The notes beneath the pieces were generated by a model. That model ran no database searches, had not been told where the DNA came from, and saw only the letters and a program-made list of their open reading frames with translations. This document shows, one piece after another, positions 14,615-58,211 of a stretch of 64,000 bases of DNA. The stretch spans positions 611,910 to 675,909 of the forward strand of contig DAIOHD010000001.1 in NCBI GenBank assembly GCA_036744835.1, written 5' to 3'. Source of the stretch: Candidatus Magasanikiibacteriota bacterium. GTDB taxonomy: Bacteria > Patescibacteriota > Patescibacteriia > Magasanikbacterales > GWA2-37-8. Positions within the stretch are counted from its first letter, which is position 1. Each line of letters starts with the position of its first letter. The position numbers and the translations under genes are program-made.

Positions 14615-15043
14615 CTATAAAGCTACTTTTGTAACTATTTTTTCTTGCAAAACAAACATTTTGTCTTCTTTTAATTTTGTATCGTGATCAAATCCTACTA
14701 GATGTAACAAGCCATGAACTAGCATCCTAATAAATTCTTCTTTCTCATTAATACTATATTCTCTGGCTTGTTTTTTTATCTGCGAATAAGAAATAAATAT
14801 TTGCCCCAAAAACTGACTCTGGATTTTTTTATCTTCATTAAAAGCAAAAGACAGCACATCGGTAGTTTTATTTTTACCACGATAAAAACGATTCAATTCG
14901 GTCATCTCTTTATCTCCTATAATAATAATTTCTACTTCTTTTTTTATTTTTTGAGTTTGTTTTTCAAAAACCTCGATAACTTTATTTATCAATCGTAAAT
15001 TTATCGGACAAATTTTCTTTTTTATTAAATTCGCTTTTAACAT
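14615..15043 (-). CDS. ybeY: rRNA maturation endoribonuclease YbeY
   Basis: 'LVHGLLHLVGFDH' is the HxxxH metal-binding motif of YbeY. Confidence 0.85.
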   Translation of the reverse strand: MLKANLIKKKICPINLRLINKVIEVFEKQTQKIKKEVEIIIIGDKEMTELNRFYRGKNKTTDVLSFAFNEDKKIQSQFLGQIFISYSQIKKQAREYSINEKEEFIRMLVHGLLHLVGFDHDTKLKEDKMFVLQEKIVTKVAL

Positions 15044-41954: not shown

Positions 41955-43925
41955 TTAAAGACTTTCTAAAATAATTTCACTATCTGGTGTTGTTGTTACG
42001 TCTATGGTTTCTTCACTTGGTGTACTGGTAGACACAAGAGATGGGCCAACTAAACACAACTTTGGCAACGGTCGATAATTGCTAGTAAAAACTCTATCTA
42101 TTTTTTCACTGGTAGATGTAAATCTGGTATAAATAAAACTACTTATAGCTCCACGAAAAGCATTTTGACACTTTTCTTCTCCCGGAGCTAATTCTGAGCT
42201 TACTACTTCCTTGGGTTCACCGGCCGGAATCCATTTCGAAACCAAAGGACTGGTATAAGAACCAAATCTGCCGTCGGATTTTCCCCAAAGAGAAAAAGTT
42301 AAAATTTGTTTTTTATAATCTATTTTTGCTTGTAACAATAAATATCCTCCAGTGTCATTTTTAAATTTTAAATCCAAGAAAGGATCGTAAAGCGCAGCGT
42401 CTGTCCCCGGATTTTTATTGATTGGATCGGCATAATAGTTCACCACCAAAGAATGATTATGACGCTCTAAAATATCCATACCGGAATTCATCGCCATACG
42501 AAAAAGTGTAGTTCCTATTTGGCACATTCCACCACCAACCTCTTTGACAATTCTATCGCCTTTGATAATTTCTTCAGGCAAATAACCGTTTTCCAAAGTA
42601 AAAGGACCAGCAAATTTAATCGCAGAAAAAACTTCATCCGGCGCTACCAAAACTCCATTAAGCAATTCAACAGCATGGGCGATGTTTTTTATACGATTGG
42701 TATGGCTATCATAAAAGGTGGAAGTACCCGTACCAATAAGATCATCAATGCCCAAATCATTTAAATCAGTTAATCTTATTTGTGATTCAACTTTTTCCGT
42801 TACCAAAAACAAGGTTGTACTGACATTGTTACAAACTCCATTCTTAAAATAATTTTCTACATTTTGTTTGGTTTTTTCCAAATTCAAACTTAAACCAACT
42901 TCTTGTTCTTTAAATTCTTTTACTTTGCCGTTAATAATGGTAAATTTTGGATTTTGAACCGGAATATCAATAATTTCTTTTAAGCTCTTCAAATAATTTT
43001 CAAATTTTTCTCCAACTAAAGTAAAATATAATTCTCCATTTTCTTTTTTATCAGCCACTAACCAGCTATTGAGTTCGGCCGCACGTAAAGTGAAACTATT
43101 ACGTCTACCCGTAGGAGCGTCGTAAACAAAAGACAAATCTCCACAGCTAACTATTTCTTCAAGTTGCCCTTTCACATCCTGTAAATCACTTGCTAATACT
43201 TTTGGCAAAAAATAATACCTTTCTATTTTAATATCCGCCAAATTTAAAATTTTTAAATTATTTTCCGTGTCAAAAATAATTTTTTCATAATCAAAAACCT
43301 GTCCGGCTCTATCAGGAATAACCTCATATTGTAACGGGTTTGACAATATTATTTTAATATTGGCATTATTGGCTTTATCTTCTATTTTATCCAAAATGTC
43401 ATGAAGGTTGTTTTTAAATTTATCTTTATCAAATCTAATTTCAAATTCAACTTTTTTATTTTTAAAAACCAAAATCAAAGGTGAAACATACTTCTGCCAA
43501 TTATCTTTTTCTCTGCCCAAATTCATAACCTTTTCCACAAAATCATCGGTGTAAAAGGTGATAAGAGGTAAACTATCCTCTCCCAAAGCCCAAATAGTTT
43601 CTACTCGAAAATCTTTTCTTTTATTATCTTCAATCAAATAATAATTTAAATCTTCTTTTACTAAGCGATTATTTAAATTTTCCACGAATTCTTTTACTTC
43701 TTCTTTTTCCATTCCTCCTAAATTATATTCTCCTAGAAAAACTCCCGGATAAACTTTGTTGATATGTTTTTGATAATACAAATAAGCACTTACAGAAGCA
43801 CAACCGAAAAAAAATAAAACCGCGATTAAAATTTTAAAAAATATTTTTAATCCCGATTTTTCTAAATTTTGATTTTGTTCCGACCCTCCCCCGGTCAGGA
43901 TATTTTCCATATTATTCTTCAACAA
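41955..43925 (-). CDS. VanW-family protein with N-terminal membrane anchor
   Basis: N-terminal TM segment. 'GGGMCQIGTTLFRMAMNSGMDILERHNHS' matches the VanW domain core (GGGVCQxSTTLYNA...ERHNHS). Confidence 0.7.
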   Translation of the reverse strand: MLKNNMENILTGGGSEQNQNLEKSGLKIFFKILIAVLFFFGCASVSAYLYYQKHINKVYPGVFLGEYNLGGMEKEEVKEFVENLNNRLVKEDLNYYLIEDNKRKDFRVETIWALGEDSLPLITFYTDDFVEKVMNLGREKDNWQKYVSPLILVFKNKKVEFEIRFDKDKFKNNLHDILDKIEDKANNANIKIILSNPLQYEVIPDRAGQVFDYEKIIFDTENNLKILNLADIKIERYYFLPKVLASDLQDVKGQLEEIVSCGDLSFVYDAPTGRRNSFTLRAAELNSWLVADKKENGELYFTLVGEKFENYLKSLKEIIDIPVQNPKFTIINGKVKEFKEQEVGLSLNLEKTKQNVENYFKNGVCNNVSTTLFLVTEKVESQIRLTDLNDLGIDDLIGTGTSTFYDSHTNRIKNIAHAVELLNGVLVAPDEVFSAIKFAGPFTLENGYLPEEIIKGDRIVKEVGGGMCQIGTTLFRMAMNSGMDILERHNHSLVVNYYADPINKNPGTDAALYDPFLDLKFKNDTGGYLLLQAKIDYKKQILTFSLWGKSDGRFGSYTSPLVSKWIPAGEPKEVVSSELAPGEEKCQNAFRGAISSFIYTRFTSTSEKIDRVFTSNYRPLPKLCLVGPSLVSTSTPSEETIDVTTTPDSEIILESL

Positions 43926-44343
43926 TATAAACAGGAATATTTAAATCAGTTTTAGTTTTAGGAAGACGAATAGTCAATAAACCATTTTTATATTCTGCGG
44001 CCGCACTTTCAAAACGAACATCTGTAGGTAATACAATACTGCGCGAAAACTTACCAAAATAACATTCTTTATGATGGTGATAAGCATTTACAGGTACAGG
44101 AGAAAAACGCTCTCCTTTGATAGTCAATAAATCGTTATGTAAATGTAGTTCCAAACTTTTTGGCAAAGCTCCGGCCATTGGACAGATAACAATAATCTCG
44201 GTTTCTGTTTCTGCCACATCAGCACTGAGCTGGCCGACTTCCGTATTCTCTTCTTTAGTCTCTAAATTTAATAATTCCGGCGAAAAATAGTTTTCCATCG
44301 GTAAATCAACTTCTAAATTTATTTTTGCAAATTTATCATCCAT
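43912..44343 (-). CDS. Hsp20/alpha-crystallin small heat shock protein
   Basis: 'LHLHNDLLTIKGER...FGKFSRSIVLPTDV...AEYKNGLLTIRLPK' is an alpha-crystallin domain. Confidence 0.85.
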   Translation of the reverse strand: MDDKFAKINLEVDLPMENYFSPELLNLETKEENTEVGQLSADVAETETEIIVICPMAGALPKSLELHLHNDLLTIKGERFSPVPVNAYHHHKECYFGKFSRSIVLPTDVRFESAAAEYKNGLLTIRLPKTKTDLNIPVYIVEE

Positions 44344-44443
44344 ATTTTTTATACAAAAAACTACCTAAATCAGGTAATTTTATTATACAATAAATAAAGA
44401 AAAGAGGCAAAACTATTTGATCGCTCCTCTCCTTATTTTAAAA

Positions 44444-44472
44444 TCCGCCCTTACGGGCAGATTTTTTCATGC
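44444..44472. terminator. Bidirectional-looking intrinsic terminator hairpin (CCGCCC-TTAC-GGGCAG) flanked by A/T runs
   Basis: A-run upstream and a T6 run downstream on the plus strand. Revcomp gives a U-tract for minus-strand transcripts reading in from the island side. Confidence 0.45.
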
Positions 44473-44782
44473 AGAGAGGGAGGGCCATTCGAAGTCGTCG
44501 TCCGCCAGTTGGCAGATTCCTCTTTGGAAAACCTTCGGGTTCTTCAACTCCTTTCCTCAGCGAGAGAAAACTCCCGTTTTCTCCCTTTCCCATTCGAATC
44601 CCTTTTCCTATCAAATTAAAAAATAAACAGGAATATTCCTATTTATTTTTCATGCGGTGTAGTCGGGTTAAGTACCCATAACTTCAATGTTTATAAGGGT
44701 ATTTTAGCACGAAAATAGCTATGCTGACCAGGCATATGGGTCGGGGTCTGGCTTTCAGAAAATGCGACAAATGCGACAGTAC

Positions 44783-45474: not shown

Positions 45475-46572
45475 TTATAAAATATTTTCTCTTAACATAT
45501 AGCCAATAACCGAGCCTTTATTGATTAGAAAATCTAAGATCACCAAAACGTTTTGTTTTAGCTCTAAAGTTTTTCGTATTTTTTCACGATTTTTATAAAC
45601 ATATTTTCTGGCAAGATTTTCTAAATAATAAACTGTATTTACTTCGAGTTTTGCCTTCGACAGATTGGCATTATTTTTTAGCATACCCGAAAGCCAAGAT
45701 ATTCCATCGTCTAGGTATGGGCTTCCAATATCATTTAGTGATTTTGATATCGCGTATAGAGCCGATGGGCAATGACCCAGTTTTTCCGCAATTTCCTTAA
45801 AGAAGGCCTTATTCTTATCTTTAAGTGTGTGCCATTCAACAGCTGACTCCTTCCAAGGATTTTGAGCAAAGAGGTAACTTTTTACAATTTTATCAACATA
45901 CCAATACCCGTCACCCTTTTTGCACATATCAATTATCTTTTCTTGAAAAAGACTCCAAACTTCCCAAAAGTTTTCATAGCAGTTTAAATAATCTTCAGCA
46001 GAGATAAATTCTTCAAACAAATCCGCTATTGCTTCTGAGCTACTAAATTTGTCAATAAATGGCTTTAGATATTCCGAAATTTCTTTTTTAGGTGAACTTA
46101 AAATGAAATATGCTAATTTCTCTAAAAAATCATGTCTAACTTTATAATCAACCCTGTCTTCTCTGTCATTTGAAATTATTTTTTCGGCAAAAGCAGAGAT
46201 GATTTTTTTAACTATTGTTTTATGGTCCTCATTCTCTGTCTTAAGTGGAATTAACTGAAAAGCTGTCTTAAGCGTATATAGATCTATTTTTTCAATGTCA
46301 TTTATATTATCGATTGATAATTTGTTATTTAAAATTTTATCTATAGTCGCCTTATTTTCTTTAAGAAATTTTTTCATTACATCCCTGTCTTGCGTGTTAT
46401 ATTCATGCTTTTTATAATTCTCCTGACGTATTTTTTCTTGTAGAGCGTCAAATTTTGGTTTTAGCAATAAATAGCCAAATAAAATTGACTGCGCCGTCTT
46501 CAAAAGAAGATTTCCATATTTTTTGAACAGCAATAATTGCGAATGCATTGAAACTAGTGCCAGCCATGTCAA
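45475..46572 (-). CDS. Hypothetical protein (start uncertain; 5' 124 nt overlap the upstream NTPase gene in another frame)
   Basis: The ORF track's extent overlaps the end of the 46448..50296 gene. The first internal Met that avoids the overlap is at ~46377. The pair may be a frameshifted single gene. Confidence 0.35.
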   Translation of the reverse strand: MTWLALVSMHSQLLLFKKYGNLLLKTAQSILFGYLLLKPKFDALQEKIRQENYKKHEYNTQDRDVMKKFLKENKATIDKILNNKLSIDNINDIEKIDLYTLKTAFQLIPLKTENEDHKTIVKKIISAFAEKIISNDREDRVDYKVRHDFLEKLAYFILSSPKKEISEYLKPFIDKFSSSEAIADLFEEFISAEDYLNCYENFWEVWSLFQEKIIDMCKKGDGYWYVDKIVKSYLFAQNPWKESAVEWHTLKDKNKAFFKEIAEKLGHCPSALYAISKSLNDIGSPYLDDGISWLSGMLKNNANLSKAKLEVNTVYYLENLARKYVYKNREKIRKTLELKQNVLVILDFLINKGSVIGYMLRENIL

Positions 46573-49500
46573 TCGGATAACAATTGAATAGATTAAATAT
46601 AAGTATTTCTTTTATTACTTTTTTCTTATTAGGAAGTTTTTCCAATAGAATTGGCAACACAGAAATCGCTGACTGTGCACCATCAGTAGATTGATATTGA
46701 TAATTTGGCTCAGACGTTATAATAGCTAATTCCAAAACTACATCAAAACAGAAACGTAGTTCTTTTTCTGTAAGCTTATCTGAGAAATCTTTTATCATTG
46801 CAGAACAAACTTCCGCTGGAATAGAATTATTAAGAAGATAAAAACCTTCTTCTTCTGAGTGTTCAAGCTTAAAAGACTCTGGTTTTTTAGATATTTTTAA
46901 TTTTGTAATGATTTCTTCAGCTTCTTTAAGTGCAAGCTTCGGATCATCTTCGTATTGTTTATATTGTTTATATTTTTCATCGTTTCTGATTCTGTAATTT
47001 GCCCACAATTTCAACTGGGTATACTTCATAGGCTCAGAGCTTTTTGCAAGTGATTTTTCACTATATTCTTTTAGTTCTGGGTCAATTTCTGGATTAAAAC
47101 TAATTAAATATCCATTCTCATTTTTTTCTGAAGCAATATTCATCTTTCTTCTATCCATTCTTGCAAGATAAAGCCTCCATGTTTTATCAGACTCTGTTTC
47201 AATTGATGGATCGGGTAATTTTTTATAGTAGTCATCTAATATTTCCCATAATTCTTTTTGTCTGTTTTTTGAATCTTCTTCGTCTACACCTTCACCTCTA
47301 AATAACTGGTAATTCAAGAATAGATTTTCTAGAGATAATTTTCGGTGTTTCTCGTCGCATGCCTGTATTCTTTCTGCTTCATGAAATTCATTTTTTGAGT
47401 TACCGCCACCAAATACCTTTAATGATTGAAGCATACCTTTATGCCCTTGGTCTAAAACCAATCTACCGGTATCACAAAAGAAAAAATCTTTTGTTTTGAA
47501 AAGAATTTTAGCAATATTAAAAGTTTTTTCAGGGTAGGCCAACACAATACTTGCCACCACTGCCGATATAGAGGTAGACCTTGAATTTTTAATAAGATAA
47601 AAAAGCCAACTCTCTAAGGCTTTTGAATCAGTAGCCTTTCCGTTTTCAAGGAAAAACTTTTCTAATGCCATGTGCATAGATTGCAAAACATATGGCGCTG
47701 GTGCCGATGATCCTCTATACATATTCCAAAGCCTTCCATTTCTGCTGTCGTATTGTTTTATTGTGTTTTCTTTTTCAATAAATATCTCAACTTCTTTAAC
47801 TTCATATTTGGCAAATTCAGTTTTAGCAAAATAATCTACTGATTTATTCGTAAATTTTAAAATAAAGTCTATTGTTTCCTGAAGCGAAGATTGCAGCAGC
47901 CAATAAATGGGAGTTTGATATGAGCTAGCAGGAAAATAGTCTAAATGTTCATCTTCCATGTCAAAATGTTCTTCCATACCTATTCCAGGGCGGCTATAGT
48001 AACAATCTTCCTTTGGAGTAAATGACCAAAATAAATCAGCCAGTTGCAATACATACTTAGGAAGTGTCTTAGCAACGGCTACACCTTCAAGTTTCGTTAA
48101 AATCATTTCAGACAAATCATTGTATGGATCTCTGTGATTCTTCCATTTATTCTTTAGAATTTCTTTTAAAATTTCTTCTAGCTCGTTTTTGATTTCAAGG
48201 GTGCTATAAAGAATCGTCTGCAATAAATTGTTTTTTGTACCATCGTCAGAAATAAAAATATCTTCTTTTATAGTCCATTGATAGTACTTTAATGCAATTA
48301 AACCAGAATATTTCGTAGTTTCTCCCTCCTTAAACTTACTAGTCCAATCATGAATTATTGGCAAAATAAAATGGATGTTTTGAGTGCCTATTTTATCAAA
48401 ATTATCAAAAACAAATTTTATAAGACATTCCCATCCCTGTCCTTTTGGTTTCGTTAAAACATACTTTAAAGAAAAAACATTTAGGTTTTTAATCCCAAGT
48501 TGTCCAAAAAAATCGTTATCAACTTCCTTACATGCAATTCTTAATAGGAAAAATATTCTATGCAATAAACTCTCCTCGTATTTATAATCAACAGTTACTG
48601 ATTGAACAACCTTGGATGAATTATCATATTTAACAATCTTTTGAGGTGCACTCAATAATTCATTTTTGAAAAGATCAAAAAACACACAAGAGAAATCAGA
48701 AAGAAGAACAGAAACCAATATCTCATCTTTCCAGAATGATTCTATATCTTTATTTTTTATAACCTGCTCAATAAATTCTTTGATGTTTTTATCCTGTAGC
48801 AACAATTTTTCAGACAGCCATTTTCTGAATGCCCGACGCATAGGCAAAGAACTGCCTATATTTTGAAAGAAAGATTTAATGTCAGATTTTTTCCCGGACT
48901 CTACTTCAATATTTTTTTCTAATGCCCATTCTTCATAAATATCATGCGTAATAAAATATCCACGCGGTGATTCATATCCTAAAATTCCATCCTTTTTTAA
49001 TTCATCCAAAATACTCGACTCACAATTGGGGGTGATAAAAAATTGTCCTTCATCCGCTCTTTGAAAGGCTATTTTCAAAAAACATTGCTCTCTTGCAGGC
49101 TTTGATTTAATAATTATCTTATTCCATAATTTATCTTTAAACTCCGTATAGTTAATTTGCTCTCCTTCTTTATAGAATTTTAAATATTCATTTAGATAAA
49201 ATGGATTTTTGATGAGATCTGCCAATTTTTCATCACTAGGAAGTGCGAAACTATACGAAGCAGAGAGAGAATTTAATCCTGTTATGTCTAAATTCTGAAT
49301 ATTTATGTTTAGAGGTGCAATTTTATAAATTTCAAAAAATTGATAATTTAAGTCTTCTAAATAATTATCTCTTGTTGTAAAGATAATTTTCCAGTTTTCC
49401 TTTATTAAGATTGTTAAAAATTCTTTGAAAGGATCTGTATTTTTTAAATCCAGCAATTTTTCCGCAGAATCAATTACAATAATTTTTTCCGTTTCTTCTT

Positions 49501-50296
49501 TGTGCCCATCCAAGAATTCTTGGAAGCTATAGCCTGTAAAAAAATCACTTATATTTCTTAATTCAAATTCGGTTGCTTTGAAAAGATAGAAAGGAATATT
49601 ATCTTTCGTTCCCTCGTAAAAATCCTTGATGACTGCCGTTTTCCCAACTCCACCTACACCACTTAAAATCAATACTTTTTCTTGACTGATCCTAATTTTT
49701 ACTAAATCATCATTCCTGTCAATTTTAATATTTTGATTATTAAAAGTAATAGATGTTTGTATCTCGTTTAAGATATTTTCCGAATGGTCTCGTTGATTTT
49801 TTATCAGATCAAAAATACTTTTACCCAGACTAAAAAAATGTTTAGCTATGATTTCACTATCTACGGACACAAAAGGTGATTCAAAATAACTAGCCACATT
49901 CCATACTAATTTAATTCCGAGTTCATTCGCTTTTTTCTCAACATCTGTTTTTCCTTGTGGCTCCTTACCTTTATTTTGACCCCATTCTTGATTGGTATAA
50001 AAAACAAATTTTGTAATATTGGGATAATCTCTTTTAGCCTTTTCTAGAGCACCAATAACATCAGTCTTACATGTAGTTTTTGATAAAGAATCACCGTAAA
50101 ATTTAGCCTGCCACCCGATCATTTCCTCTCCATCTTTTATTGGATCGTTTTCTATAGCAGATTGATTTTTATAACGAAATATACCAGTATCTTTTTTATA
50201 TTCTCTGCAAAATAATAAGTAGCAAAACCACTCAAAATTACTTTGAGGATTTTCGCTAAATTTTGCTTCAAATATTTTCCAGTTTGGCTTTATCAT
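46448..50296 (-). CDS. Large (1282 aa) STAND-like P-loop NTPase: N-terminal ~200-aa domain of unknown function, central Walker A/B NTPase, long C-terminal alpha-helical region (candidate antiviral STAND/Avs-like defence protein)
   Basis: Walker A 'ILSGVGGVGKTAV' at ~aa 205-217 and Walker B 'KIIVIDSAEKL' ~60 aa downstream. The remaining ~950 aa are predicted helical-repeat-like. The tripartite layout is typical of NACHT/STAND proteins. Confidence 0.65.
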   Translation of the reverse strand: MIKPNWKIFEAKFSENPQSNFEWFCYLLFCREYKKDTGIFRYKNQSAIENDPIKDGEEMIGWQAKFYGDSLSKTTCKTDVIGALEKAKRDYPNITKFVFYTNQEWGQNKGKEPQGKTDVEKKANELGIKLVWNVASYFESPFVSVDSEIIAKHFFSLGKSIFDLIKNQRDHSENILNEIQTSITFNNQNIKIDRNDDLVKIRISQEKVLILSGVGGVGKTAVIKDFYEGTKDNIPFYLFKATEFELRNISDFFTGYSFQEFLDGHKEETEKIIVIDSAEKLLDLKNTDPFKEFLTILIKENWKIIFTTRDNYLEDLNYQFFEIYKIAPLNINIQNLDITGLNSLSASYSFALPSDEKLADLIKNPFYLNEYLKFYKEGEQINYTEFKDKLWNKIIIKSKPAREQCFLKIAFQRADEGQFFITPNCESSILDELKKDGILGYESPRGYFITHDIYEEWALEKNIEVESGKKSDIKSFFQNIGSSLPMRRAFRKWLSEKLLLQDKNIKEFIEQVIKNKDIESFWKDEILVSVLLSDFSCVFFDLFKNELLSAPQKIVKYDNSSKVVQSVTVDYKYEESLLHRIFFLLRIACKEVDNDFFGQLGIKNLNVFSLKYVLTKPKGQGWECLIKFVFDNFDKIGTQNIHFILPIIHDWTSKFKEGETTKYSGLIALKYYQWTIKEDIFISDDGTKNNLLQTILYSTLEIKNELEEILKEILKNKWKNHRDPYNDLSEMILTKLEGVAVAKTLPKYVLQLADLFWSFTPKEDCYYSRPGIGMEEHFDMEDEHLDYFPASSYQTPIYWLLQSSLQETIDFILKFTNKSVDYFAKTEFAKYEVKEVEIFIEKENTIKQYDSRNGRLWNMYRGSSAPAPYVLQSMHMALEKFFLENGKATDSKALESWLFYLIKNSRSTSISAVVASIVLAYPEKTFNIAKILFKTKDFFFCDTGRLVLDQGHKGMLQSLKVFGGGNSKNEFHEAERIQACDEKHRKLSLENLFLNYQLFRGEGVDEEDSKNRQKELWEILDDYYKKLPDPSIETESDKTWRLYLARMDRRKMNIASEKNENGYLISFNPEIDPELKEYSEKSLAKSSEPMKYTQLKLWANYRIRNDEKYKQYKQYEDDPKLALKEAEEIITKLKISKKPESFKLEHSEEEGFYLLNNSIPAEVCSAMIKDFSDKLTEKELRFCFDVVLELAIITSEPNYQYQSTDGAQSAISVLPILLEKLPNKKKVIKEILIFNLFNCYPIDMAGTSFNAFAIIAVQKIWKSSFEDGAVNFIWLFIAKTKI

Positions 50297-52634: not shown

Positions 52635-53150
52635 ATGGTTGACGACAAGACAAAACAAAAACTGCTCAAAGAACTTGAAAAAAGCGGCAATGTTTGGTCG
52701 TCTTGTCTTAAATTGAATGTTCACAGATCAACATATTATCGCTGGAAAGAAACGGACAAAGAGTTTAGACGATTGGCTAATACAGCCGAACGACACGGTC
52801 GTGAAAATATGTGTGATATTGCGAAGCACGCTCTCATGCTTAATGTGAAAGATAAAAAAATGGAGGCAATAAAATATGTATTGAGTCACCTGGATCCGCC
52901 GTTCAAGAGAAAGCAGACCAGCAATGTGGTCATACTTCATAAAAAAGATATTATTCCTCCTGTGCCTCAAAAAACACTAGAAGATCTGTTTGATGAATTA
53001 GCAGATAATAAAATAGTTTCTACTGACACTGTGGACTCAAAATCCGTGATGGATAAGCCGCCAGTAACGCTTCAAGAGAATCAAACGCCTTCAGGTAATC
53101 AGAGCTCAAATTCTGCCATTCAGGACACGAAGATGGATAGTAGTACTTAG
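52635..53150 (+). CDS. HTH protein, phage terminase small-subunit-like / IS-type HTH
   Basis: 'LNVHRSTYYRWKETDKEF' is a homeodomain-like HTH, as seen in TerS and IS3 OrfA proteins. It has a low-complexity C-terminus and overlaps the convergent nuclease gene by ~130 nt. Confidence 0.45.
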   Translation: MVDDKTKQKLLKELEKSGNVWSSCLKLNVHRSTYYRWKETDKEFRRLANTAERHGRENMCDIAKHALMLNVKDKKMEAIKYVLSHLDPPFKRKQTSNVVILHKKDIIPPVPQKTLEDLFDELADNKIVSTDTVDSKSVMDKPPVTLQENQTPSGNQSSNSAIQDTKMDSST

Positions 53151-54111
53151 AAGTTCGATATGACGAAGTATAATATTTGCCGGTTGTTTGAGAACTTGCT
53201 TGAGATGAAGATGAATCAGTCACGCTTGAAGTCGTGTCACCGTTGCATGTGTCGGGAGACCATAATCCTCTGAGATTTTGTTGAGCTGATTTCTGAGCCG
53301 CCTTAAAGTCTGCTTGATACTTGTATGGCGTGTTATATGTGTATTCGTGGGCATAACCTTGTTCAATCATATATTTGTTGTAAAACAAACCATCTTCGCG
53401 ATAGATATATGCAAGTCGACGACCATATTTATCCAGCTCGCCCTGAGTTAAATCTGGCTCAAGATGAACCTTCTTGCCACTCAATAATTCTTTGGCCTTA
53501 TTGGATGCCTCTTTGCCAAAACATTGGACTGGTTTTCTCGGATCAACCGTCTCTGGTGTATCCATGCCAATAAGTCGTAAGGTCTCAATCGTACCGCCTA
53601 TATTCACCTTTATAGTGTCGCCATCTACAACGCTTGAAACGGAATAATATTCATATTGTGAATTATTTTGAATTGCTGGAGTCGGAATTGTAGTTGTCTT
53701 TTCTGTTTGAGTCGTCTGAACATTTTTAGTTTGTTGAGCTTCTGTTTTGGGTTGCTCCTCTGTGGTTGTGGTAGATTGATTTTCAATGAGCGCATCAGGT
53801 TTATTGATTTGCGTTGATTCCTTGTTTTCACTTTCAACAGAAGCGCTCTCATTGCTGATTGGCTTTTCTGTTTTTGGAGCAGTTATACCGATACCAAAAA
53901 AAGAAACAATTATTATTGCAGAACAAACAATCGCAATAGTTTTTCTTTTAGGAATAATTTTAATTGCTCGTTTAAAAACAGACGGCTTAATTAATCCGAC
54001 AATTAAAGAGATGATTGATAGCAATAATGTTAATAAAAATATGTAGGTCATATGGTTGGAAAACAAAAAACCAGCTGTCTTATAGCTGGCGATGGAGATA
54101 TGTGGATACAC
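53020..54111 (-). CDS. Membrane-anchored secreted thermonuclease (SNase-like) with Thr/Gln-rich linker
   Basis: N-terminal TM. SNase core 'VVDGDTIKV...TLRLIGMDTPET...CFGKEA...YGRRLAYIY'. C-terminal Ser/Thr-rich region with a Cys pair. Confidence 0.8.
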   Translation of the reverse strand: MYPHISIASYKTAGFLFSNHMTYIFLLTLLLSIISLIVGLIKPSVFKRAIKIIPKRKTIAIVCSAIIIVSFFGIGITAPKTEKPISNESASVESENKESTQINKPDALIENQSTTTTEEQPKTEAQQTKNVQTTQTEKTTTIPTPAIQNNSQYEYYSVSSVVDGDTIKVNIGGTIETLRLIGMDTPETVDPRKPVQCFGKEASNKAKELLSGKKVHLEPDLTQGELDKYGRRLAYIYREDGLFYNKYMIEQGYAHEYTYNTPYKYQADFKAAQKSAQQNLRGLWSPDTCNGDTTSSVTDSSSSQASSQTTGKYYTSSYRTSKYYYPSSCPEWQNLSSDYLKAFDSLEALLAAYPSRILSPQCQ

Positions 54112-54408
54112 AGAACCCCGCGCCAGCTAGACCTTACGGTCCCATACCAGTTTCCCGATATGACCCAACGAAGAGTCGCTGAACGCGGGGTTCAGTATCT
54201 TCGTTGGGGTTTCCCGACCATATCCTTTGGAAAACCAAAGGGGTTAGGTCGCTGGTCTTTCGGCCAGTAATATTAAATTGTTAAGTACATTTTACCAGAA
54301 AATCCAAGGGATTTAAAGGCCTCTGTACTTTAGCTTAATAACAGGGGTTTGCGAAGCCTAAGTTACCAACAACTTATCTACTCGGGACGCTCTGGACTCC
54401 TTTGAGGA

Positions 54409-55755
54409 TTGGCGTCATTCATTAGATATATGAAAATAACAGCCCCAAAGGGCTATGAGGTGGCCCAAATACAGCCTCAAACGGTCAAAGTCAGATATTG
54501 CCTGTATGCCCGTAAATCAACGGAATCCGAGGAAAGGCAGGTACTTTCCATAGATTCACAGATAAAAGAGATGCTTCAGCTCGCTGAACGAGAATGTTTA
54601 GAAGTAGTCTGTATGAAGCGAGAAAGTCATTCAGCCAAGGAAACTGGACAAAGACCAGTCTTTAACGAGATTATCGAAGAAATACGAGCCAAGAAGTATA
54701 ACGCCATTCTCACTTGGGCTCCTGATCGTATTTCAAGAAATGCCGGAGACTTAGGAAAAATCGTGGATTTAATGGATGCGGGACTATTACAAGAAATCAG
54801 AACCTTTGGACAAAAATTCTCAAACAATCCAAATGAAAAATTTTTGCTGATGATTCTCGGTTCGCAAGCAAAACTTGAAAACGACAACAGAGGCGTAAAC
54901 GTAAAACGCGGATTACGAACAAGAGTAGAAATGGGATTGTGGCCGGGTGTAGCCCCACTCGGATATTTGAATCAAAATTTGATGGATAAAAAATGCCAAG
55001 TGATTGTTGATCCGCAACGAGCCCCAGCAATTAAGAAAATATTTGAAAAAGTAGCATACGAGCATTACTCAGGTAGAAAGTTATACAACTGGTTACGGCA
55101 CGAATTAAATTTCTATACCCGAGGAAATAAGCCACTAACGCTAAGCGGTATATACAGGATTTTGGATAACCATTTCTATTACGGCACGTTTGAATCACCG
55201 AAAGGTAGCGGTAATTGGTATCAAGGAAAACACGTGCCAATCATAACTCAAGAACTATTTGAAAAAGCTCAGGCACAGCTTAAGCGAGACAATATTCAGC
55301 GAGAGAATAAAGAATTTGCTTTCACGAAGCTATTTACATGCGGATATTGCGGAAGTGGAATATCTGCAGAAGAAAAATGGAAACAGCTTAAAGACGGAAC
55401 GCACGCCAAATACATCTACTATTCATGTAGCAGAGCGAGAAATAGAAATTGCAAAAATCACTATATACGAGAGGAAGATTTAATAACTGAATTACTCAAG
55501 ATATTAGATAAGGTAAATATAAATGAGCTTGGTATGAGGCAAAAACTAGAAGATGAAATAGCACGATTCAATATTTTCCGAAGGTCAGTTCTTGGTGCAA
55601 CAGAAAAGATTAAAAACAATCAAGATACCGACATAAGAAACTTTGCCAAGTATATTCTAAAAGAAGGCACGATTGGCGAAAAAAGAGAGTTGTTGGCAAA
55701 CCTGAGATCGAGAATAATTTACAAAGATAAACAACTTACACTGATTGAGGAATAA
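54409..55755 (+). CDS. Large serine recombinase (resolvase catalytic domain + recombinase domain + Zn-ribbon)
   Basis: 'YCLYARKSTESEERQVLSIDSQ' is the catalytic Ser motif. There is a central recombinase domain. C-terminal 'CGYCGSGIS...YYSCSRARNRNCKN' is a zinc ribbon. ~448 aa. Confidence 0.85.
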   Translation: MASFIRYMKITAPKGYEVAQIQPQTVKVRYCLYARKSTESEERQVLSIDSQIKEMLQLAERECLEVVCMKRESHSAKETGQRPVFNEIIEEIRAKKYNAILTWAPDRISRNAGDLGKIVDLMDAGLLQEIRTFGQKFSNNPNEKFLLMILGSQAKLENDNRGVNVKRGLRTRVEMGLWPGVAPLGYLNQNLMDKKCQVIVDPQRAPAIKKIFEKVAYEHYSGRKLYNWLRHELNFYTRGNKPLTLSGIYRILDNHFYYGTFESPKGSGNWYQGKHVPIITQELFEKAQAQLKRDNIQRENKEFAFTKLFTCGYCGSGISAEEKWKQLKDGTHAKYIYYSCSRARNRNCKNHYIREEDLITELLKILDKVNINELGMRQKLEDEIARFNIFRRSVLGATEKIKNNQDTDIRNFAKYILKEGTIGEKRELLANLRSRIIYKDKQLTLIEE

Positions 55756-55790
55756 CAAAAATACACGATCGACTTGTGTATTTTTGTTTA

Positions 55791-57977
55791 TTAAAATCCA
55801 GATAACCCCTCTAACTTTTTGTAATGCATTGGATCAAGTATCTTAACCAACTGCAAAGCTTCTTGTATCCTTACATTCGCGTTCATTATTATTGATTCAT
55901 CCGTTGATTCTGTATCAGGAAATCCATGAGATCCATGATTTATAAATCTATACATTTCTAAATGATCAGCAGCGAAAGGGGTGGTCCATTTTTCAGTAAT
56001 CTTTTTAGCCTCTGCGTATGCAGATTCAAGAGTTGATTGAAGATCACCCGTTGTTGAAAATTTAAACTCAAGGAATGTTTCTAGCCATCGCCTCAATAAA
56101 TTAACTACTAAATGTGCATCCGCAGCATCGCAAGAATCTTTATGTTTCGCTAGTACATTAAAAACATAGTAATAATCCGATCTGTGATCTCGCAGCAATC
56201 TATTTATTGGTTTTATTGTAGATCCAGTATCTAATGCCTCAATGCTGCAAACATTGATTAACCCATCATCAATTTTTTTACGATAACCTTCTTTAAGGTG
56301 TCCTAGAAAATCTAAATTGTGCGTCAAAATAAAATATTGCCTAGTAGGATGTTTCTTAATTTCATTAACTATAATAGAAAAAATTTGGAATATTGACTGC
56401 TTGTCTAAACTTGAAACAGGATCATCAATAATAACAACTCCGTCATCTGATAGTTTATTCTGTGTATCATTAATAGAATAAATAAAGTACGCCAGTGCTA
56501 TAAAATTCTTTTCGCCCTCACTTAAGCTAGAAAAAACACAGTTAACCCCATCTCTTTTTAGTGCATATCCCTTACCATCATCAGCATCCGTAATTTCTAT
56601 TTTCCTATAAGGAAAAACTACTTTAAAAAGACGATTTAAAGCTTGTGCTGGTTCAAGCGTGTTTTTAACTTTCTGTTTTAATTCCTTAACTTGATTGTCT
56701 AAATTTGAAATCTCAAGTCCTATTGCGACTCTTTGCTTTACAGTATTATCATATGACTCTTTTTCTCGAGTATACTGCTCATATTGCTGGGCTACATAAT
56801 GCGCCTCTATTGAGTAGGCTATAGAAGTGGAGTCAGTCGGTGTTGGCTTAGATAATGGGGTTATTTTTTCTGTATCTAAAGAATATGTTTTCTTGGGAGT
56901 AGATACGGAAGCTCTTTTTTCCTTTAGAATTACAGCTAAAGAATCAAAAATCGATCTCACATGATCGATGTTTTGTTGTTGTATAGTAGAAAGAGAATCT
57001 AGTTTTGCGAAGCTAGTTGTATAACTATCAATATTTTTCAAAAATAAATCTATTGAATCTGTTACCTTAACAATTTCATTAGAAAAGTGTTTTATCAGTT
57101 CGTCGGTATTTTTAATATCAGAATCACAAAACAAACATTTGGTTAATGATTGTTCTTCGTTAAAATGCAAGCTTACACCTTGTTTAATCCAACTAGTTTG
57201 TAGCTCACTAAGATTATCTATTCTTTTTGAATGAACTTGAACAGGTTGTGACTCTAAAATTAGGTTAATGTCTGCAATATTATTTGTAATCCAATTAACT
57301 GCACTAGCTATTTCATTGTCATTTTTTGCTGATCTCTCTGTGTTCATTAATTGATTTTTTAAAGAATCAATATCCGAACGTATTAATTCAGAAGAACTTT
57401 TAATTTTACCGTCAGCAATCTTTTTGTTAATATCAGCTACTCTTTTTTCAAAATCAGTTTTTGAATAACTAGCATAAGTTCCTGCACCAACAAGTTCCTT
57501 TTTAATACTATTGATACCACCAACTTCTTTGATTACTACAGCTGTAGTACTAGCTATATCATCATGTTTTGTTGGGAGAATAATTTTATTATATTCATCC
57601 CTTTTTTCTTTTAATTTTTGTTCTTCGGTGTCGTAGCTTACAGCCTCCTTGCCAGCAAAAAATATATAAGGAATAGTTGAACTCTCTCGTAATGTTTCTT
57701 CAATATAATTCCCATTAAAAACTCTGACATTACCTTTTATTAAATTTAAATCACTATTTTCAGTAATTTGAGAAAGATCCGTTTTAATCTTAAATGTACA
57801 GTTTTTTTCGATTATTCCAGTTTCTAAACATCGCAAAACTTTCGAAAAAGTTGTTTTACCAGATCCATTCCAACCAAATAGAAGATTGATTCCATCAGAA
57901 AAATCACACAACGAAGAGTCCCATGAGTAATTATGGAACCTTGCATGATTGAGTTTTTCAATCTTTTGTATTTTCAT
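55791..57977 (-). CDS. RloC/PrrC-family (AAA_13) ATPase, candidate tRNA anticodon nuclease with Rad50-like CxxC zinc hook
   Basis: Walker A 'LFGWNGSGKTTFS'. A coiled-coil insert contains 'CLFC'. ABC signature 'LSEGEKNFIALAYFIY' then Walker B/D-loop 'VVIIDDPVSSLD'. The ~200-aa C-terminus has 'LRRWLETFLEFKF' and conserved His/Arg, consistent with the PrrC/RloC nuclease domain as I recall it. Confidence 0.6.
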   Translation of the reverse strand: MKIQKIEKLNHARFHNYSWDSSLCDFSDGINLLFGWNGSGKTTFSKVLRCLETGIIEKNCTFKIKTDLSQITENSDLNLIKGNVRVFNGNYIEETLRESSTIPYIFFAGKEAVSYDTEEQKLKEKRDEYNKIILPTKHDDIASTTAVVIKEVGGINSIKKELVGAGTYASYSKTDFEKRVADINKKIADGKIKSSSELIRSDIDSLKNQLMNTERSAKNDNEIASAVNWITNNIADINLILESQPVQVHSKRIDNLSELQTSWIKQGVSLHFNEEQSLTKCLFCDSDIKNTDELIKHFSNEIVKVTDSIDLFLKNIDSYTTSFAKLDSLSTIQQQNIDHVRSIFDSLAVILKEKRASVSTPKKTYSLDTEKITPLSKPTPTDSTSIAYSIEAHYVAQQYEQYTREKESYDNTVKQRVAIGLEISNLDNQVKELKQKVKNTLEPAQALNRLFKVVFPYRKIEITDADDGKGYALKRDGVNCVFSSLSEGEKNFIALAYFIYSINDTQNKLSDDGVVIIDDPVSSLDKQSIFQIFSIIVNEIKKHPTRQYFILTHNLDFLGHLKEGYRKKIDDGLINVCSIEALDTGSTIKPINRLLRDHRSDYYYVFNVLAKHKDSCDAADAHLVVNLLRRWLETFLEFKFSTTGDLQSTLESAYAEAKKITEKWTTPFAADHLEMYRFINHGSHGFPDTESTDESIIMNANVRIQEALQLVKILDPMHYKKLEGLSGF

Positions 57978-58115
57978 ACATAATTAGTTTATCACTTTTT
58001 TGAGTCTCTTAATAGATTAAAAACACGATTTTTATCGTGTTTTTAATATCAATCTATATACTCGGGTCGCACATTCGCCATGAGCGTATGGGTTGACTCC
58101 GATAAAAAATTGTCT

Positions 58116-58211
<96 letters not shown>

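Follow-up and report, generated by a model that had tools for sequence, protein, structure and literature searches.

The window analysed here, a stretch of 64,000 nucleotides from a Candidatus Magasanikiibacteriota bacterium, carries between a serine integrase gene and a tRNA-Ser gene an open reading frame (ORF) of 728 amino acids that we call X. It starts with ATG, runs on the reverse strand (55791-57977, as in a preliminary description made from the sequence) and very probably encodes an intact RloC-family protein, in which an ABC-ATPase head split by a coiled-coil insert is followed by a C-terminal nuclease-type domain. The host lineage is Patescibacteria, or the candidate phyla radiation (CPR). 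The preliminary description had put X forward as an RloC/PrrC-like anticodon-nuclease candidate of the AAA_13 family lying between the integrase and tRNA genes; the position is as described, and the profile matches, the register of the motifs and the architecture all support the proposal.

The Pfam search that had been suggested gave a match to AAA_13 (PF13166) at E=1e-81 and 276 bits (cut-off 36), aligning residues 19-693 of X with model positions 8-697 of 713. The best PADLOC family was PDC-S06, a candidate single-gene system (E=2e-96), which the C-terminal domain of X also matches in isolation (E=1e-19), and the PHROG family phrog_2801, whose profile of 735 positions is similar in length to X, was matched at E=6e-38. 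Homologues of X number 260, with 69 at 36% identity or above, and the N-terminal MKIQK(I/V)EKLN is kept in relatives. Compared with a 98.6%-identical relative, in the solitary configuration, X has a ratio of nonsynonymous to synonymous substitution rates (dN/dS) of 0.051. Because of the homologues, the conserved N terminus and the low dN/dS, X is clearly not a chance ORF; it is a whole gene under purifying selection.

Relatives at 57-65% identity bear the JGI/IMG name 'wobble nucleotide-excising tRNase', which is the COG name for RloC. This is an annotation rather than a test, and it is the one piece of evidence for membership of X in COG4694. Relatives from named lineages belong to Buchananbacteria, Parcubacteria, Doudnabacteria and Saccharibacteria. 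The view that a gene of this type is unusual for a CPR-like lineage does not stand, given the existence of dozens of CPR relatives; in the literature searched we found no paper linking RloC with CPR, yet these homologues are present in public data. That X is an expected member of a widespread and known RloC family, here in CPR/Patescibacteria, is well supported. The viral contigs of IMG/VR also contain many relatives, at 21-32% identity, and no close relatives were found among them.

Motifs, folds and the nuclease-type domain

RloC has been defined by the combination of ABC motifs like those of PrrC, an inserted coiled coil that has a CxxC at its centre and a C-proximal Arg-x3-Glu-x36-52-His, in which Ser often precedes the His (PMC2610378). 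The motifs that had been read from X at the outset (GWNGSGKTT, CLFC, LSEGEK, VVIIDDPVSSLD and LRRWLETFLEFKF) are all there, and the set of ABC motifs is complete, with key residues invariant in the 82-117 relatives compared. Conservation was counted over 117 full-length relatives, 51 of which are at only 25-28% identity. G35, N37, G40 and K41 of Walker A are invariant among them; also invariant in the relatives compared are S486, E487 and E489 of the ABC signature, D518, D519, P520, S523 and D525 of the Walker B/D-loop region, and T552 and H553 of the H-loop. The ABC signature of E. coli PrrC (EcoPrrC) is LSKGE173, and its Walker B and D-loop read YVFIDD216-xx-SSLD222 (PMC3025547), the same register as in X; the H-loop follows the D-loop Asp at a distance of 28 residues in X versus 29 in EcoPrrC (ITTH251).

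In X, too, a coiled-coil insert centred on a CxxC separates Walker A from the ABC signature. From an alignment of 82 sequences AlphaFold2 gave a model (mean predicted local distance difference test score, pLDDT, 85.6) that comprises an ABC head, a helical insert at about residues 116-454 and an all-helical C-terminal domain at residues 593-727. According to DSSP, long helices in the insert, which is of about 340 amino acids, flank the apex as balanced arms of about 165 and 170 amino acids. A check of the coiled coil around the CxxC had been proposed, and in the model the motif, a putative zinc hook, lies in the non-helical apex (residues 272-290) of this long helical insert. C281 and C284 are conserved in 117 of 117 relatives, and F283 in 115.

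The third part of the definition appears in X as R629-x3-E633-x50-S683-H684, the x50 spacer lying within the published x36-52. The Arg-Glu-His triad that remained to be located in the preliminary description is thus R629/E633/H684, identified via the published signature. A C terminus that could not be aligned with that of PrrC and RloC had been named there as evidence against the assignment; both the signature R-x3-E-x36-52-(S)H and the R-x2-N-x2-S-H register are present, and the assignment is not refuted on this count. LRRWLETFLEFKF occupies residues 628-640, and the second motif reads R677-F-I-N680-H-G-S683-H684. The essential nuclease residues of PrrC that are also conserved in RloC are R320, E324, R349, N352 and H356 (PMC3025547); they correspond to R629, E633, R677, N680 and H684 of X, with identical spacing inside R-x3-E and inside R-x2-N-x2-S-H. 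R629, S683 and H684 are found in all 117 relatives, position 633 is Glu in 107 and Asp in 10, position 677 is Arg in 87 and Lys in 25 (112 of 117 taken together), and position 680 is Asn in 74 and Gln in 23 (97 of 117). N626, D715 and H718, the last downstream of the motif, are further invariant residues of the family and are not described for RloC or PrrC in the literature consulted. In the full-length model R629 and E633 lie on helix 618-640, and S683-H684 come just after helix 672-681.

With the C-terminal domain as phmmer query, 146 cluster representatives were retrieved, of which the full-length ones have 700-810 amino acids and carry the domain at the C terminus. Matches of PrrC size (345-390 amino acids) were considered as possible PrrC proteins and rejected, being C-terminal fragments of PDC-S06/RloC-like proteins. 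In one protein from the representative search, P0148 (370 amino acids), an N terminus that matches models of type II restriction enzymes is joined to the C-terminal half of an RloC-like protein; the gene is decayed or chimeric, unless the fusion is an artefact of gene calling.

Modelled alone, the C-terminal domain is again all helical (pLDDT 87; predicted template modeling score, pTM, 0.79). Foldseek searches of PDB and BFVD with this model gave no significant match; the sub-threshold matches with the highest template modeling (TM) scores are the HEPN toxins 8xdj (0.45/0.50) and 7ae6, and Csm6'. The nuclease domain of RloC and PrrC, neither of which has a solved structure, has been assigned to the HEPN superfamily, whose marks are an all-alpha fold and an R-x4-6-H motif (PMC3710099). 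The model is suggestive of a HEPN fold for the C-terminal domain of X and fits this assignment without proving it.

The best Foldseek matches of the full-length model in PDB are Rad50/MRN, Lamassu LmuB and SMC heads, with PARIS AriA and PtuA also among the matches. Together with the RecF, Rad50 and ABC matches in NCBIfam, all of them weak, and the adjoining integrase gene, this could be taken to mean that X is a generic Rad50/SMC/RecF-like ATPase for DNA repair or upkeep of the mobile element, with a C-terminal domain that is no nuclease. We regard this as most improbable. No Mre11/SbcD-type partner gene is found among the neighbours of X in the window, the C-terminal domain is absent from Rad50/SbcC (PMC2610378), and the very R/E/R/N/S/H set that marks the anticodon nucleases is among the most conserved positions of that domain; moreover, the contexts in which X genes occur are defence islands and restriction-modification (R-M) operons.

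Several observations weigh against reading X as an RloC. His295 of PrrC is conserved in RloC too (PMC3025547), and no conserved counterpart is evident in X upstream of R629, H598 not being conserved in the family. The PADLOC hidden Markov model of PrrC finds no match at E<=10 in the isolated C-terminal domain, and in X it aligns to residues 485-568 only, the part of the ATPase that contains the ABC signature and Walker B. A profile of the hook alone, searched against PDB, reaches the Rad50 hook 1l8d at a non-significant E=0.74, its top matches being the coiled coil of the mitochondrial ATPase inhibitor IF1; for this reason the weak matches of the full-length profile to the Rad50 hook structures 1l8d and 6zff (E~0.008) should not be over-read. 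The comparison with RloC and PrrC was made through published motif strings and residue numbers rather than by direct alignment with GkaRloC (of Geobacillus kaustophilus), AbaRloC or EcoPrrC. X is presumably distant from the RloCs that have been studied, so that neither the target tRNA nor the excision of a wobble nucleotide can be transferred to it with confidence.

An alternative reading is that X is an ABC-ATPase/HEPN defence RNase directed at another target, such as mRNA or rRNA, or using a chemistry other than wobble-nucleotide excision. HEPN RNases act on diverse RNAs (PMC3710099), and RloC substrates themselves vary, from tRNA-Glu and tRNA-Gln in A. baylyi (PMC3874168) to the promiscuity of GkaRloC in vitro (PMC3458546). 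The LARP motif for anticodon recognition has been described only in PrrC (PMC2610378, PMC3025547), and the extra invariant N626, D715 and H718 are absent from descriptions of RloC and PrrC. Even so, we think such a departure quite unlikely: the whole catalytic constellation of both known anticodon nucleases is kept in register, and no protein with the architecture of X has been shown to have a different target.

Control of X and its exchange between islands

If X operates as an RloC, it would be a dimer held latent through its own zinc hook, like the enzymes of Geobacillus and Acinetobacter (PMC3458546; PMC3874168). Phage-inflicted or other double-strand breaks would supply DNA ends which, together with ATP hydrolysis, would trigger the enzyme; once active, it would cleave the anticodon loops of tRNAs and bring translation to a halt, with abortive infection or dormancy as the presumed outcome and protection against phage as its presumed role. 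All residues needed for this mechanism are intact and strongly constrained in X, and the copy in the window is carried without R-M partners.

The main rival to such autonomy is dependence on R-M, as in PrrC: X would normally be silenced or activated by a type I R-M complex, and the copy in the window would be an orphan that needs Hsd proteins from elsewhere in the genome and is otherwise unregulated or silent. Searches with tblastn, using three sets of HsdM, HsdS and HsdR, found no hsd gene in the 64-kb window, in agreement with the absence of nearby hsd genes noted in the preliminary description. Its next step, that this absence favours RloC over PrrC, is weak reasoning, since in the closest clade (72-78% identity) X sits in hsd operons at five independent loci. 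These share the arrangement of an integrase gene followed by hsdM-hsdS-X-hsdR-YgjP (L002/L003, L004, L019, L020 and L021), with short gaps or gene overlaps such that in L002 the stop codon of X overlaps the start of hsdR. The position is that of prrC in the prr locus, and the one behind the name 'restriction-linked ORF'. A relative at 60% identity (L106) lies in a type III-like Mod-X-NYN-Res operon beside RhuM/Fic, and one at 37% identity adjoins a type I system; whether R-M proteins regulate RloC in trans is left open in the literature (PMC3874168).

Set against this, the zinc hook, the internal and R-M-independent switch of RloC, is invariant, and RloC of A. baylyi was activated even in an R-M-deficient host (PMC3874168). 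A solitary module, in which X follows the tRNA gene and converges with the integrase gene, occurs in at least three lineages (the window, L107-L109 at 98.6% identity, and L103 at 73%), and the dN/dS of 0.051 was obtained in this solitary state. With no hsd gene in the window either, we consider R-M dependence of the copy in the window unlikely and favour RloC-type control by the protein's own hook. Other relatives occur beside Thoeris (L105), in a ParB-methylase/integrase element (L104) or alone (L005), and the contexts of X relatives match the published contexts of RloC. In L104, a group I intron (RF00028, 67 bits) is located at 14709-15041, close to the gene for the RloC-like relative P0019.

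The islands bearing these genes exchange cargo. L002 shares with the window a backbone of tRNA-Ser, an end segment of about 78 nucleotides, the integrase (97.5% amino acid identity) and the LOOT RNA with the SNase gene (92.6%), and the insertion point of its 12-kb hsd-X cassette corresponds exactly to position 54374 of the window. In the slot between tRNA and integrase, the window has X where L002 has three small genes. The island can be described as a mosaic with two cargo slots, one in the gap between tRNA and integrase and the other beyond the integrase gene; cargo in L002 is the 12-kb type I R-M operon with X, HigB, an M78 peptidase and others, and that in L107 a DNA methylase/Eco57I-type gene. 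X of the window is only 77% identical to X of L002, as against 97.5% for the integrases, and neighbour-joining places it on a separate branch amid the sub-clades embedded in hsd operons, which marks X as swappable cargo rather than backbone. Many contigs end a short way upstream of X, as would fit junctions that differ between members of the population.

What is mildly novel about X is limited to the occurrence of both R-M-embedded copies and solitary ones on island backbones that are nearly identical. One may speculate, with considerable doubt, that a single CPR clade maintains an RloC-type gene in two states on sister islands, in a type I R-M operon at the PrrC position and as stand-alone cargo, under similar purifying selection; if both are functional, the gene would switch between R-M-coupled and autonomous control without a change of architecture. 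Were this true, such natural pairs would make the question of the interface between RloC and R-M directly testable, and the R-M-embedded and solitary copies form in any case a natural comparison set for the silencing of RloC-type nucleases. X also extends a characterized class of translation-disabling defence enzymes into the CPR/Patescibacteria, organisms of ultra-small size that have reduced genomes and few reported defences, where an RloC-type gene travels as swappable cargo on small tRNA-targeting serine-integrase islands.

The island in the window

X is the first cargo gene of a serine-integrase defence island of about 13.6 kb (~44.47-58.12 kb) at the 3' end of tRNA-Ser(GCT), the far boundary being predicted from the sequence. 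Features of the gene and the island are collected in Table 1.

Table 1. Positions of X, its motifs and domains, and the associated island features in the window
Feature	Position	Strand	Basis or remark
Gene X, very probably of the RloC family	55791..57977	-	ABC-ATPase head, coiled-coil/zinc-hook insert, C-terminal nuclease-type domain
Walker A GWNGSGKTT, residues 35-43	57849..57875	-	K41 = GkaRloC K44 = EcoPrrC K46 (PMC3458546, PMC3025547)
Helical (coiled-coil) insert, residues ~116-454, splitting the ABC head	56616..57632	-	DSSP on AlphaFold model
CLFC (C281-x2-C284), putative zinc hook at insert apex	57126..57137	-	
ABC signature LSEGE, residues 485-489	56511..56525	-	Read as LSEGEK at 485-490
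Walker B and D-loop VVIIDD519-PV-SSLD525 (VVIIDDPVSSLD, residues 514-525)	56403..56438	-	
H-loop H553 in ILTH	56319..56321	-	
All-helical C-terminal domain, residues ~593-728, presumed HEPN-type anticodon-nuclease domain	55794..56201	-	
R629-x3-E633 (= PrrC R320/E324, GkaRloC R692/E696)	56079..56093	-	Motif definition PMC2610378
R677-x2-N680-x2-S683-H684 (= PrrC R349, N352, S355, H356; GkaRloC H737)	55926..55949	-	
Large serine integrase (Resolvase, Recombinase, Zn_ribbon_recom)	54409..55755	+	Pfam; PHROG integrase family; convergent with X
Hairpin between convergent stops of integrase gene and X	55760..55795	.	AAAAATACAC...GTGTATTTTT, read from sequence
Conserved element-end segment directly 3' of tRNA, then hairpin and X promoter region	58038..58115	-	
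tRNA-Ser(GCT), integration-site flank	58116..58211	-	ARAGORN, Rfam
Putative far island end, degenerate tRNA-Ser 3'-end copy (TTCGAATGGCCCTCCCTCTCTGC)	44471..44493	-	Best tRNA-tail match

The hairpin between the integrase gene and X is likely a bidirectional terminator. On the other side, tRNA-Ser(GCT) lies 138 nucleotides upstream of X. Here the window and L107 differ in the T-arm of the tRNA and become almost identical right after its ...CCGCCA 3' end, so that the element starts at the tRNA, with X as its first gene. The end segment is near-identical in L107 although the T-arm differs there, and is 77-84% identical in L002/L003 although the next gene differs. Sister elements adjoin tRNA-Ser(GCT), tRNA-Ser(TGA) or tRNA-Trp. 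The proximity of X to a tRNA gene, which had been thought special, follows from where the element integrated: we considered adjacency as a link between nuclease and substrate and rejected it, since sister elements lie at varied tRNAs and the end of the element directly adjoins the tRNA 3' end, which points to a choice of integration site and not to function.

The far end of the island is likely at the 23-nucleotide copy of the tRNA tail, in direct orientation, which scores 30 compared with 20.9±2.0 for shuffled sequences and was equalled by 1 of 200 shuffles (12.3 kb searched). It coincides with the change from housekeeping to island genes and with resumed synteny to L009: housekeeping genes extend to HSP20 (43912-44343), and from about 44.5 kb to tRNA-Ser the genes are island-like. 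Apart from this degenerate copy no long attachment (att) direct repeats were found at the island, as is expected because the integrase is a serine integrase. L009 (CAYRYH010000020.1), labelled 'uncultured Gammaproteobacteria bacterium', is syntenic with the window at 84-86% nucleotide identity across the EngB-kinase region and is probably a mis-binned CPR contig. It was considered as an island-free site, its synteny jumping from EngB to about 44.57-44.66 kb of the window, and set aside as not a clean empty site, since it has no tRNA-Ser. The intergenic region 44400-44680 of the window shares 82% identity with L009 over 44566-44657; within it are a near-perfect palindrome at 44619-44650, a hairpin resembling a terminator at 44401-44468 and, twice, the T-arm-like string 'TTCGAAT'. 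Rfam gave no credible family for the conserved segment at 44.4-44.7 kb, and the region may be what is left of an att site or of a tRNA.

From the far end, the island genes are a 219-amino-acid ORF without assignment, a frameshifted Avs4, a LexA/S24-type repressor, a ParB-N6/N4 methylase, a helix-turn-helix (HTH) protein resembling a terminase small subunit, the SNase nuclease, the LOOT RNA, the integrase and X. Avs4 (45475-50296, reverse strand) consists of a 1282-amino-acid ORF (46448-50296) overlapping one of 365 amino acids (45475-46572), which cover positions 1-1232 of the PADLOC Avs4 model at 1809 bits and positions 1229-1570 at 467 bits. Read against the intact 1607-amino-acid homologue in L004, the two are one antiviral STAND gene split by a 1-nucleotide frameshift near 46454-46494, and the split is not an assembly error because the independent assembly L001 has it too.

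The LOOT RNA (RF03000) at 54129-54250 on the reverse strand, between the SNase and integrase genes, is a full-length Rfam match at 83 bits (gathering score 46), and a 72-amino-acid 'ORF' on the forward strand that overlaps it (54052-54270) is probably no gene. The RNA also occurs in four related islands (L002 17193-17315, L019 14605-14726, L020 14868-14984, L104 5682-5812), and in the window, L002 and L020 it stands directly upstream of an SNase-domain gene on the same strand; because of this recurrence and position it suggests a cis-regulatory or element-associated RNA. The SNase-domain protein itself (53020-54111, reverse strand; 363 amino acids) has a hydrophobic segment at the N terminus as well as a Thr/Gln/Ser-rich linker of low complexity, and matches PADLOC C3a212 'SNc+LTD' (E=7e-45) as well as phage nuclease families of PHROG. 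The protein belongs to the conserved island backbone and is probably a nuclease that is either secreted or anchored in the membrane.

X among known systems

The closest characterized counterparts are the RloCs of G. kaustophilus HTA426 (GkaRloC, 804 amino acids) and Acinetobacter baylyi ADP1, which have the same domain order as X and, like it, belong to Pfam AAA_13. The landmarks of GkaRloC, namely K44, C291 of the hook, D572 (K44 and D572 being the sites of its ATPase mutants) and the triad R692/E696/H737, are colinear with K41, C281/C284, D518/D519 and R629/E633/H684 of X, and in both proteins Ser precedes the His. X is 76 amino acids shorter, its spacer between Glu and His is 50 residues rather than 40, and its host is a member of the CPR/Patescibacteria. 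Often rloC is the single cargo of an integrated element (PMC3458546), and X too is carried alone on such an element.

With PrrC (E. coli CT196, 396 amino acids; prr/EcoprrI locus) X shares the register of LSxGE, hhhhDD-xx-SSLD and the TH some 28-29 residues later, as well as the nuclease residues R-x3-E and R-x2-N-x2-S-H. However, PrrC is a protein of about 400 amino acids with an uninterrupted ABC domain and no coiled-coil/zinc-hook insert, whereas the insert of X accounts for about 340 of its 728 residues, and neither the PrrC box nor the LARP motif, both features of PrrC, is detectable in X. The closest relatives of X lie between hsdS and hsdR, as prrC does, while X of the window has no linked hsd genes; linkage to type Ic hsd, invariable for PrrC, is lacking in the window and present at L002/L003, L004, L019, L020 and L021, and context therefore varies within the clade.

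RloC architecture inside R-M loci has precedents in rloC of Campylobacter jejuni and other R-M-embedded orthologues, which lie in type I or type III R-M loci in the manner of L002, L004, L019, L020, L021 and L106; 8 of 72 RloC orthologues were reported inside R-M loci (PMC2610378). X of the window differs from C. jejuni rloC in being solitary, and the CPR elements add a serine integrase and a tRNA-gene site. PDC-S06, the best profile match, and phrog_2801 are computational families without assigned function and add no mechanism beyond an association with defence islands and phages.

Rad50/SbcC, LmuB of Lamassu, AriA of PARIS and PtuA of Septu/retron systems resemble X in having an ABC head with an inserted coiled coil, and Rad50 also has the apical CxxC. 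Their nucleases are proteins of their own (Mre11/SbcD, LmuA, AriB or PtuB), or a fused C-terminal domain of HEPN type is lacking, whereas the putative effector of X is in the same polypeptide. X departs from Rad50/SbcC in having no Mre11/SbcD neighbour and in the conserved domain of about 135 amino acids that follows its ABC head. It is the coiled-coil/zinc-hook architecture, and not the genomic context, that places X with RloC.

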